In this document: positions 1,826 to 22,503 of the stretch, in pieces
Layout of the letters: every line of letters begins with the position of its first letter
Numbering within the stretch: position 1 is the stretch's first letter
Assembly: GCF_057098645.1 (NCBI RefSeq)
Contig: NZ_CM169472.1
Strand: one strand, 5' to 3'
Length of the DNA: 64,000 nt
Program-made: the position numbers and the translations under genes
The notes under the pieces: model-generated
What the model saw: only the letters and a program-made list of their open reading frames with translations
The model's database searches: none
What the model was told of the DNA's origin: nothing

Positions 1826-2110
1826 ATGAAAATGGCCAATCATCCCCGCCCGGGGGACATTATTCAGGAATCACTGGACGAACTTAATGTCAGCCTGCGC
1901 GGGTTTGCCAGAGCAATGGAAATTGCTCCCTCAACGGCAAGCCGATTGCTGACCGGAAAAGCAGCTTTGACGCCAGAAATGGCAATTAAACTTTCCGTGG
2001 TGATCGGCAGTTCGCCGCAAATGTGGCTGAATCTGCAAAACGCCTGGAGTCTGGCAGAGGCTGAAAAAACGGTGGATGTGTCGCGATTACGTCGTCTGGT
2101 TGCGCAATAA
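1826..2110 (+). CDS. yddM: XRE-family HTH protein, HigA/VapI-like (94 aa)
   Basis: Internal ATG at 1826 gives a 94-aa product; HTH-like region; synteny. Confidence 0.75.
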
Positions 2111-2140
2111 AAAATGGCGCCTTTTACAGCGCCATTTGAA
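2111..2140. terminator. Hairpin AAATGGCGC-N8-GCGCCATTT, copy 1 (bidirectional terminator type)
   Basis: Perfect inverted repeat flanked by A/T runs directly after yddM stop. Confidence 0.5.
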
Positions 2141-2159
2141 ACTGATGACAAACGCAACA

Positions 2160-2275
2160 TTGCCTGATGCGCTACGCTTATCAGGCCTACACGTTCACTG
2201 CAATCTATTGGATTTGAACGGTTTGTAGGCCGGATAAGGCGTTCACGCCGCATCCGGCATGAACAAAGCCTACGT
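2160..2275. repeat. REP/BIME-type palindromic repeats
   Basis: Two GCCTGATGCG.../GCCGGATAAGGCG...CGCATCCGGC units typical of E. coli REP elements. Confidence 0.6.
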
Positions 2276-2287
2276 TGTCTACAATAT

Positions 2288-2317
2288 GAAAATGGCGCCT
2301 TTTACAGCGCCATTTTC
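2288..2317. terminator. Hairpin AAAATGGCGC-N8-GCGCCATTTT, copy 2 (terminator for fdnI on minus strand)
   Basis: Same hairpin as 2111-2140, 20 bp downstream of fdnI stop. Confidence 0.55.
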
Positions 2318-2337: not shown

Positions 2338-2991
2338 TTATATCCCTTCTTCACTCTCTTTTTTCGCTTCTGCCTTCTCGATTTCACGATACCAGCGCGG
2401 ATGGTGTTTCTTCGCCCAGCGACGGCTCACCTTCCCTTCGATCATCCCTTTAATCGATCCTTTCACCCAGAATGCCATATACATATGGATCAGGATGGCG
2501 TGGATCAGGATGATACCCGCAGCCGCGTGGATCAGCAGGCTGTAGCGAACAACCTGCATCGGGAAGTACTGCGCAAAGTACGGACGCCAGATAATCACCC
2601 CGGTCACCAGCAGCACGAAAATCATGCTCATGATCGACCAGAACATCATCTTTTGCCCGGCGTTGTACTTACCGACATCCGCCACTTTATGCTCATTGCC
2701 TTTTAATACTTCGACAATGTTTAACAGCCACGGAATATCTTTCTTATCCGGGATGTTGTGATGCACAAAACGCACAAACATAAACATCAGTGCGACGAAA
2801 ATCGCAATGCCGAAGAATGGGTGCAAAATGCGTCCCATCTGCGGCGTACCGAAGGTTTGCGTCAGCCATTGCAGCGTCGGGAAGAAGAACGAAATCCCGG
2901 ACAGCGCCACCAGGAAGAAGCAAATCACCACGGTCCAGTGACAGGCGCGATCAATAAATTTGGTGCGCACAATCATTTTCGACTTACTCAT
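2338..2991 (-). CDS. fdnI: Formate dehydrogenase-N gamma (cytochrome b556) subunit
   Basis: 217-aa membrane protein from internal ATG (2991); overlaps fdnH stop; operon context. Confidence 0.9.
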
Positions 2992-21660: not shown

Positions 21661-22503
21661 TTTTCCCGCCTCCGGGTGCGTATCAAACGCCGCCATCACC
21701 AGCGCTAACTCATCCACGGTAAAGCCATGTTTCGCATCATCCACGCCCAGACCAAACTGTTCTTGCATCACGGCATATAACGACGCCACATCCGGTAGAT
21801 TTCGCTGCTCCACCGCGTGCCCATTTTCATAATGGGTAAAATGAAAATTGGTCAGTGTCAGCTTGCCGCCGTCCGGTAAATGGCGGCACATCAGCAAATG
21901 ATGGCGAAAATGCGACTGCGGCCAGTGCGCCGACCAGAAATTGCCCATCACATAATCGCTTTGTTGCTGCTCGCAGAGATCAAAACGGTACATCGACTGC
22001 CAGTGCTGATGATGATTAAACTGCAACACCCAATTATCACCCTCCTGCAACAACCGATACTCTCCGTGTGGCGTGGTCTGCACGAGATCGGGAACTAAAC
22101 GAATCGGCGCGGTTAGCGTCTGCCCACCGAAACCGACATCAGCAATCCATTTTTCCTCTTCCAGTTCCACCAACAGCAAACGATGGGTGCGCGGCGGTAA
22201 TGCTGGCGGATTTGATAACACTACGCGCCCTAACAAGCTGCGAACGTTAAACCCCAGCTCGCGTAACACCCGCTCAAACACGCCATTCTGCTCAAAACAG
22301 TAACCGCCACGACGGGCTATCACCAGTTTCTCTTCCAGCGATTGATCATCAAGCTGCATTTCCCTCGGCAGCAAAACGTCGAGGTTTTCAAACGGAATGG
22401 TGCAATTGTGTTTCAGGTGCAATGCACGAAGCGTATCAATATTGACCGCAGCAGTTCCCGACCAGTTAATACGGGCAAAATAGTGATTCAGAATGGGCGT
22501 CAT
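21658..22503 (-). CDS. nhoA: Arylamine N-acetyltransferase
   Basis: 281 aa; NAT-family sequence. Confidence 0.9.
   Translation of the reverse strand: MTPILNHYFARINWSGTAAVNIDTLRALHLKHNCTIPFENLDVLLPREMQLDDQSLEEKLVIARRGGYCFEQNGVFERVLRELGFNVRSLLGRVVLSNPPALPPRTHRLLLVELEEEKWIADVGFGGQTLTAPIRLVPDLVQTTPHGEYRLLQEGDNWVLQFNHHQHWQSMYRFDLCEQQQSDYVMGNFWSAHWPQSHFRHHLLMCRHLPDGGKLTLTNFHFTHYENGHAVEQRNLPDVASLYAVMQEQFGLGVDDAKHGFTVDELALVMAAFDTHPEAGK

Follow-up and report, generated by a model that had tools for sequence, protein, structure and literature searches.

Two copies of a terminator-like hairpin bracket a BIME-1 element between yddM and fdnI of Escherichia coli: a possible footprint of insertion

No repeats are more abundant in E. 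coli than REP and BIME sequences. In the 64,000-nucleotide stretch of DNA analyzed here (the window), a REP cluster lies between yddM and fdnI with a copy of the same hairpin on either side, and an initial annotation, made from the sequence alone, proposed that REP insertion had duplicated what was once a single terminator. Is the paired hairpin a trace of such an event, and does the arrangement extend to other sites at which such elements reside? Dissemination of REP/BIME sequences "remains to be elucidated" (PMC8266576).

We found an exact 27-nt direct repeat, AAAATGGCGCCTTTTACAGCGCCATTT, at positions 2111 to 2137 and 2289 to 2315 (start-to-start spacing, 178), confirming that two copies of one hairpin surround the REP cluster. 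The start of the first copy at 2111 was given correctly in the initial annotation; its second copy, placed at 2291 to 2318, really occupies 2289 to 2315, and the string it quoted as 28 bp has 27 nt. Allowing up to three mismatches, AAAATGGCGCCTTTTACAGCGCCATTT has just two matches in the 64-kb window, and none of 100 dinucleotide-preserving shuffles gave any. The gene context suggested earlier also stands, because the window sequence is 100% identical to that of E. coli O145 RM9872, in which the flanking genes are annotated as yddM and fdnI, and because translation agrees. The features of the locus, in order, are as follows.

1826-2110, plus strand: yddM, HigA-family antitoxin gene (annotation of identical or near-identical E. 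coli records)
2111-2137, no strand assigned: left (yddM-proximal) hairpin copy, hereafter L, AAAATGGCGC / loop / GCGCCATTT
2138-2160, plus strand: BIME-1 outer A end motif, GAAACTGATGACAAACGCAACAT, shared with the elements downstream of aspC, at entD-fepA, and at yhaC-rnpB
2161-2191, plus strand: Y-type REP (palindromic unit), from pattern match, inverted repeat, and BIME-1 alignment
2192-2223, plus strand: BIME-1 L linker, CGTTCACTGCAATCTATTGGATTTGAACGGTT, from alignment to other BIME-1 elements, with a weak Rfam ES036 match at 2183-2224
2224-2259, plus strand: Z1-type REP, inverted relative to the Y REP, from inverted repeat and alignment, with a sub-threshold Rfam naRNA4 match at 2228-2264
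2260-2288, plus strand: BIME-1 outer B end motif, TGAACAAAGCCTACGTTGTCTACAATATG(A), matching the consensus ..GCGCACTTTGTCAACAATCTGA of other BIME-1 elements
2289-2315, no strand assigned (extended palindrome, 2287-2318): right (fdnI-proximal) hairpin copy, hereafter R, from inverted repeat and RNA fold
2338-2991, minus strand: fdnI, formate dehydrogenase-N gamma subunit (translation, annotation)

The yddM stop codon (TAA, 2108 to 2110) directly adjoins L, and 22 nt separate the R hairpin from the fdnI stop codon. R sits inside a longer perfect palindrome of 12+12 nt (2287 to 2298 and 2307 to 2318). Both copies are rich in G+C, carry A and T tracts, and form hairpins whose predicted RNA folding energies range from −13.6 to −20.8 kcal/mol (z-scores, −4.8 to −6.1). 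As for yddM itself, it is an orphan HigA-type antitoxin gene in the window, where the region upstream (1681 to 1825) lacks a toxin gene; an upstream 92-amino-acid RelE/ParE-family toxin gene is intact in EC13 and Escherichia sp. MOD1-EC7003 (L006:19-297; L012:3991-4269) and frameshifted in AVS0575.

The 151 bp between the copies (2138 to 2288) comprise an A end motif, a Y REP, an L linker, a Z1 REP, and a B end motif, so that the REPs earlier described in some 150 bp between the hairpins are indeed there. Judged from its sequence, this segment is one complete BIME-1. Its Y and Z1 REPs align column for column with those of the BIME-1 elements at entD-fepA, yhaC-rnpB, and metE-ysgA. The 32-nt linker, CTGCAATCTATTGGATTTG, is homologous to the consensus CTGCAATATATTGAATTTG, which carries an IHF site; compared with CTGCAATATATTGAATTTG, the window linker has two substitutions inside the predicted core of that site. 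The segments outside the REPs, which we take to be the A and B outer motifs of BIME-1, recur beside Y-L-Z1 pairs downstream of aspC and at entD-fepA, yhaC-rnpB, and metE-ysgA; they are imperfect inverted repeats of each other and show zero (A) and three (B) mismatches to the motifs common to other loci. The A motif occurs at a median of four places per E. coli genome, and the B-motif variant seen here was found at the yddM-fdnI locus only, in one to four copies per genome in 2,503 genomes. There is no gap on either side: the left repeat runs right up to the A motif, and the B motif gives way directly to the right repeat.

REP-derived matches in Rfam (naRNA4, ES036) were all sub-threshold, and none was returned for the hairpins; a promoter scan found no promoter; and the annotation of NC_000913.3 lists no REP features in the yddM-fdnI spacer. 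We considered and rejected the possibility that the REP-adjacent 23- and 29-bp segments are locus-unique flanks, since both represent versions of the conserved end motifs of BIME-1. Descent of the right flank from a decayed yddM 3′ end was also rejected as not significant (83 of 1,000 shuffles equaled the similarity). Elsewhere in the window, positions 21570 to 21644 hold another REP pair (Y-like, short linker, Z-like), located between convergent ORFs at 20669 to 21562 (plus strand) and 21658 to 22503 (minus strand); it has neither A/B motifs nor a flanking hairpin repeat.

Locus sizes at yddM-fdnI fall into discrete classes among the 5,426 complete E. coli genomes that we surveyed. In the empty allele, found in 2,271 of the 5,426 (42%), the yddM stop codon TAA, a single hairpin (AAAAAAATGGCGCTTCTTAAAGCGCCATTTTCAG), and fdnI follow one another; the initial annotation had named REP-less genomes with two hairpins as the finding that would speak against insertion, and these REP-less genomes, which include E. 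coli O104:H4 and AVS0575, have one. Filled alleles carry one to four units of 178 bp (2,503 genomes with the standard right end motif): K-12 has two units and three hairpins, XJ23PTE1 has three units, and the internal junction of multi-unit arrays was matched in about 929 records. The flanks of filled EC13 and empty AVS0575 are near-identical, differing at 1 of 279 and 3 of 500 positions.

Within filled alleles, L and R are usually not identical: L is GCACCTTATAAAGCGC or GCACTTTATAAAGCGC, the former being the L type in most E. coli and in E. albertii, and R is GCGCCTTTTACAGCGC. The left junction of the window, in which L equals R, was seen in just ~356 records, mostly O157:H7 and O145. EC13 shows a change in the direction opposite to that of the window: its R has acquired the 5′ flank of L. 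In the single-hairpin E allele, GCGCTTCTTAAAGCGC, 3 to 4 nt distinguish the hairpin from L and from R alike, and the hairpin is identical across different flank haplotypes and in Escherichia sp. MOD1-EC7003. Rather than being ancestral sites that were retained, these E. coli alleles may have arisen by secondary loss, the hairpin loop variants holding too few informative sites to polarize empty and filled alleles. Empty-allele hairpins at yddM-fdnI (L002) and at another BIME-1 site, rsmS-mscK (L217:250-290 versus L104), show several loop and stem differences from both filled-allele copies; the alleles therefore look old rather than the product of recent excision.

Several individual strains show further changes at these sites. 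The fdnI-proximal hairpin is lost through a 34-bp deletion (..CAATATGAAAGTTCAAAAG..) in BL21 (L010:1015-1045; also L005:745-775), so that the first hairpin facing fdnI transcripts sits beyond the REP pair, and OkiPb01708 (L004:680-700) has an 18-bp deletion within the Z1 REP, between short TTCA repeats. In the K-12 units (L001:690-720), compared with positions 2219 to 2235 of the window, the 5′ arm of Z1 is changed from GGTTTGTAGGCCGG to GGTTTTCATGCCGG, which lengthens the palindrome with downstream CCGGCATGAA as though the arm had been corrected against its partner. At two loci, IS200C is inserted at the foot of the single hairpin, in the A tract directly 5′ of it: at yddM-fdnI in TUM1223 (L003:580-1330), where about 3 of 60 sampled records carry the insertion, and at rsmS-mscK in EC571 (L218:250-1000). 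The junctions at the two loci are near-identical (..TAAA|TAAATATCC...GTGCAC|AAAAA..). Since IS200C is a Y1 element, these hairpins are also targets of a single-strand transposon.

The outgroup loci come from one scan of species-representative genomes with FdnI, among whose results neither E. fergusonii nor E. marmotae nor the type genome of E. coli appeared. E. albertii has the order L, BIME-1, R, with an L of the E. coli type and copies identical at 22 of 26 positions, and the same order occurs in SCPM-O-B-8794, a divergent genome labeled E. coli (adhP 92.9% identical) whose copies agree at 22 of 25 positions. Comparison with genomes lacking the REP cluster, proposed at the outset as a check, again turned up single hairpins. 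In Citrobacter sp. strains NCU1 and Awk 4, yddM is followed by a spacer of ~90 bp without an intact REP pair and then by one hairpin, ATGGCGCCTTTT(T)CAGCGCCAT, which is almost that of E. coli R and has a similar 5′ flank (..GATGAAAAAAATGG); in Salmonella arizonae, the order is adhP, one hairpin, and fdnI. In Escherichia sp. MOD1-EC7003, yddM is separated from a single E-type hairpin by a NUDIX-like gene. R aligns with the single hairpins of Citrobacter, MOD1-EC7003, and the empty alleles of E. coli. When aligned to the 178-bp unit, the Citrobacter spacer shows a weak resemblance to the 3′ half of Z1 and no more; as this spacer is missing in Escherichia, an extra deletion step must be assumed.

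These comparisons indicate that one hairpin is the ancestral state; R is orthologous to that fdnI terminator hairpin, and L is the derived copy. They likewise indicate that the duplication and BIME-1 are older than the split between E. coli and E. albertii, and the exact identity of the copies in the window therefore reflects secondary homogenization.

Other sequences near these outgroup loci were considered. The NUDIX-like ORF of MOD1-EC7003 encodes 162 amino acids (L012:3214-3702) and has no sequence similarity to the BIME-1 unit; the idea that the 178-bp unit is a remnant of this gene was rejected, the similarity not exceeding that of shuffles. The 11-mer TGATGACAAAC in Klebsiella michiganensis (L056) was dismissed; it falls within a CcdB-like coding remnant, and the match is probably due to chance. 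Enterobacter sp. R1(2018) (L083:3375-3640) has a CRISPR-like array immediately downstream of fdnI, with a 29-nt repeat (ATTTCTAAGCTGCCTGTACGGCAGTGAAC) at a spacing of 60/87.

At the same fdnI position, Citrobacter amalonaticus AUH carries an exact duplication (22 to 23 bp) of its own fdnI hairpin, which differs in sequence from that of E. coli (GGCGCTACCGGAGTAGCGCCTG), around a 140-bp insert; sister species have one hairpin at the orthologous site. This duplication at the orthologous hairpin is an independent event. The insert (L017:3196-3345) has BIME-1-type A/B end motifs, a central IHF-consensus-like AATCAATTGATTG, and internal palindromes that are not REPs; it may be a Citrobacter relative of BIME-1, and a second copy of it was not found among the loci examined.

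For BIME-1 at other sites, we scanned metagenome contigs for the consensus L-linker 17-mer and obtained 73 REP-flanked matches representing 23 distinct sites, 21 of them usable. At each, the 75 nt preceding the Y REP were aligned with the 95 nt following the Z1 REP, and scores were compared with those of 420 mismatched left/right pairs (95th percentile, 17; 99th percentile, 20). Locus-specific repeats were found at 6 of the 21 other BIME-1 sites (scores, 21 to 51; P ≤ 0.01), and two more sites were marginal. In all cases but one, the left repeat ends 21 to 25 nt before Y and the right repeat starts 28 to 31 nt after Z1; these offsets place the repeats at the outer ends of the A and B motifs. 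Each site has a terminator-like palindrome of its own as the repeat, and the two copies are in direct orientation because their loops read the same way. At ~13 of the 21 sampled sites, no recognizable flanking repeat was found; decay, truncation, or another route of arrival may account for these sites. Among other BIME-1 sites, the A-motif side of the element downstream of aspC directly adjoins the aspC terminator hairpin, and IS621 (IS110 family) lies inside the Y REP of the same element (L093:560-1028). One metagenome contig (L126:1200-1560) carries two tandem Y-L-Z1 units with different outer sequences (GCAGCGCAGCCCGATGTAGCGATAG).

For three of these sites, we could compare filled and empty alleles. 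At metE-ysgA, E. coli has a single CGGGTGGTAATACCACCCG when empty, and a related contig has hairpin, BIME-1, and hairpin with repeats of 19 to 20 bp; fbaA-mscS has a single copy when empty and a 37-bp repeat when filled; and rsmS-mscK has a single hairpin when empty and 19- to 21-bp repeats when filled. A clean empty allele was not found for fruA-psuK, the psuK side being missing in most genomes. Thus, an empty site with exactly one copy of the repeat is seen at yddM-fdnI, metE-ysgA, fbaA-mscS, and rsmS-mscK and in the sister species of C. amalonaticus. The signature resembling a target-site duplication that the initial annotation had recommended looking for is therefore present, as the copies touch both outer edges of a complete BIME-1 and the topology recurs elsewhere; its suggestion that REP insertion duplicated a single terminator gains support here and holds beyond yddM-fdnI too.

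Could the paired hairpins have another origin? Convergent genes often own a terminator each, and both copies fold stably, as would be expected if yddM and fdnI had two independent terminators that are alike by chance or through selection for terminator features. Against this stand the loop sequence that the copies have in common in the same orientation, their identity at 22 to 27 of 26 to 27 positions across lineages, and the one hairpin in outgroups with the same gene pair; we consider this account already contradicted and give it almost no credence. A recent insertion in the lineage of the window strain would account for identity at 27 of 27 positions in the window, but the copies have diverged in E. 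albertii, in the second divergent Escherichia lineage, and in most filled E. coli alleles, and the window BIME-1 is orthologous to the elements in all of these. This account, too, is already contradicted and in our judgment highly improbable.

The other two alternatives concern the order and manner of events. If the terminator had first been tandemly duplicated by slippage, BIME-1 could have landed later between the hairpins, favoring hairpin-adjacent sites. Most sampled BIME-1 elements do adjoin a hairpin on at least one side even without a repeat, so hairpin-adjacent targeting exists on its own, and IS200C also lands beside these hairpins. However, no element-free double hairpin was seen at the four filled/empty loci or at the C. 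amalonaticus site, and at independent sites the repeats touch the element ends with no spacer left over, so that the element would always have had to fill exactly the gap between preexisting copies; we regard this order of events as quite improbable. Replicative template switching, in which a strand stalled at the hairpin copies BIME-1 from elsewhere, returns upstream, and recopies the hairpin, leaving the duplication as a by-product of repair at the fork, would accommodate duplications that vary in length (19, 20, 22, 26, and 37 bp) and always include the hairpin, though asymmetrically at fbaA-mscS, a pattern more in keeping with variable return points than with a fixed staggered cut. It would also fit with the absence of repeats after Y1 enzyme activity (PMC3333891). 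Yet the same precise A/B motif ends are found at independent sites, pointing to defined element termini, and microhomology between element ends and targets is not evident, making template switching an unlikely source of the duplication.

We consider it likely, instead, that the BIME-1 between yddM and fdnI is flanked by a duplicated fdnI terminator hairpin, that the duplication arose with the insertion, and that the copies were later homogenized. The topology observed is repeat-element-repeat, with a single repeat in empty sites, from which we infer that insertion created the repeat. An Escherichia ancestor would have had yddM, one bidirectional hairpin, and fdnI. BIME-1 would then have inserted at the hairpin, with the whole hairpin being duplicated in the manner of a target-site duplication of hairpin length. 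Unequal recombination, slippage, and gene conversion would then act on the resulting direct repeats of 26 to 27 bp, which would explain precise loss and tandem gain (zero to four units of 178 bp) as well as conversion between copies. In an O157/O145-type lineage, the diverged left copy would have been overwritten by the right copy, leaving the two identical, as they are in the window.

Across loci, repeat lengths (19 to 20, 20, 22 to 23, 26 to 27, and 37 bp) vary with the size of the target hairpin and show no fixed stagger, which argues for recognition of hairpin structure. On the mechanism, we can only speculate: we prefer a scheme in which the target hairpin is recognized on both strands and the symmetric element is joined at the 3′ foot on each, while an alternative scheme would have a cruciform extruded and then cleaved at the base; after joining or cutting, repair would leave hairpin-element-hairpin. 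As a tentative generalization, about which we remain somewhat doubtful, BIME-1 elements might insert specifically at intrinsic-terminator hairpins in a structure-directed way, duplicating the whole hairpin, and this duplication might drive precise loss and amplification. We know of no enzyme that explains a duplication of 19 to 37 bp and of variable length. Y1 transposition of the IS200/IS605 type, which serves as a model for how RAYTs move REPs, is described as leaving no flanking direct repeats (PMC2817692, PMC3333891).

What do the two copies mean for transcription? On the minus strand, L forms a 10-bp stem followed by TTTTTTATT, a terminator-like match with a fold of −16.5 kcal/mol, and R forms a 12- to 13-bp stem (−20.8 kcal/mol) with its U run partly within the stem; the hairpin of the empty allele is bordered by an A7 tract on one side and a T4 tract on the other. 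The minus-strand order on leaving fdnGHI is R (−20.8 kcal/mol), the REP pair, and L (−16.5 kcal/mol) followed by UUUUUUAUU, with a U6-7 tail. R plus L amounts to two predicted tandem terminators for fdnGHI transcripts. The common L variant has an A·C mismatch on the plus strand and a G·U pair in minus-strand RNA (−13.2 kcal/mol, U7 tail); because minus-strand pairing is kept, L looks maintained for the fdn direction, and it looks like a predicted backup terminator for that direction rather than for yddM. Depending on the strain, the 3′ end of the fdnGHI operon has one or several predicted tandem terminators.

The yddM-fdnI locus is itself an ordinary, old, and highly polymorphic BIME-1 site; it is the hairpin-length duplication that generalizes. 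With 42% of genomes empty, the spacer is a length-polymorphic marker in E. coli. The duplicated hairpin around BIME-1 may be a footprint of element insertion and, if so, a target duplication of 19 to 37 bp, matching hairpin length, would be the first recognizable footprint of REP/BIME transposition. Such a signature would make REP/BIME spread testable, with terminator hairpins as the target and hairpin-element-hairpin as the product. It would also explain precise loss of a whole BIME-1 and how a supposedly single-copy BIME-1 can act as a tandem repeat of zero to four copies, and it is at odds with the rule that Y1 transposases, which are thought responsible, leave no duplication.

BIME-1 elements (RIB/RIP) were reportedly described by Gilson et al. 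1991, Bachellier et al. 1994, Boccard & Prentki 1993, and Oppenheim et al. 1993, and Bachellier et al. 1997 (Genetics 145:551) is said to have recorded whole-element presence and absence among natural isolates, with "excision of a whole BIME-1." A hairpin-length repeat flanking BIME-1 is not described in the searchable literature, which does not reach the primary papers of the 1990s; as far as we have checked, three aspects appear to be undescribed, namely that the repeat is a duplicated terminator hairpin, that it recurs across loci and genera, and that BIME-1 varies between zero and four copies via hairpins.

Like the BIME-1 of E. coli summarized in PMC3333891, the yddM-fdnI element has inverted Y and Z1 REPs, a long L linker, and conserved outer motifs and is extragenic, 3′ of convergent genes; unlike the consensus, its L linker departs from the IHF-site sequence at two positions. 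BIME-1 elements are stated to "occur as single copies" (PMC3333891), whereas the yddM-fdnI element plus one hairpin forms a 178-bp tandem unit present zero to four times: one copy in the window, two in K-12, three in XJ23PTE1, and at most four. Since the tandem unit includes the hairpin, this is not amplification in the style of BIME-2. The tandem REPIN clusters of Pseudomonas fluorescens SBW25 (Bertels and Rainey 2011, PMC3116915, Fig. S7) are similar in that the repeat unit is a REP doublet plus flanking sequence in nearly identical tandem copies; they differ in REP family and host, and PMC3116915 includes neither a duplicated terminator hairpin nor an empty-site comparison.

IS200/IS605 elements and RAYT (TnpA-REP) are comparable in that hairpin-recognizing Y1/HUH enzymes are thought to move REP/BIME and in that IS200C is found at the foot of the same hairpins; those systems are described as leaving no direct repeats (PMC2817692, PMC3333891), whereas repeats of 19 to 37 bp flank BIME-1. 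Direct repeats at both element ends, as in a transposon-type target-site duplication, are present in the window, E. albertii, SCPM-O-B-8794, and C. amalonaticus, and their length, 19 to 37 bp across loci, is not the fixed one typical of a single transposase. Bacterial MITEs combine terminal inverted repeats with a short target-site duplication (PMC3184786). BIME-1 resembles them in being small and noncoding, with imperfect terminal inverted repeats (A/B), direct repeats of the target, and filled and empty alleles; in contrast to the short, family-fixed duplications of MITEs, the length of the BIME-1 repeat, 19 to 37 bp, tracks the target hairpin.
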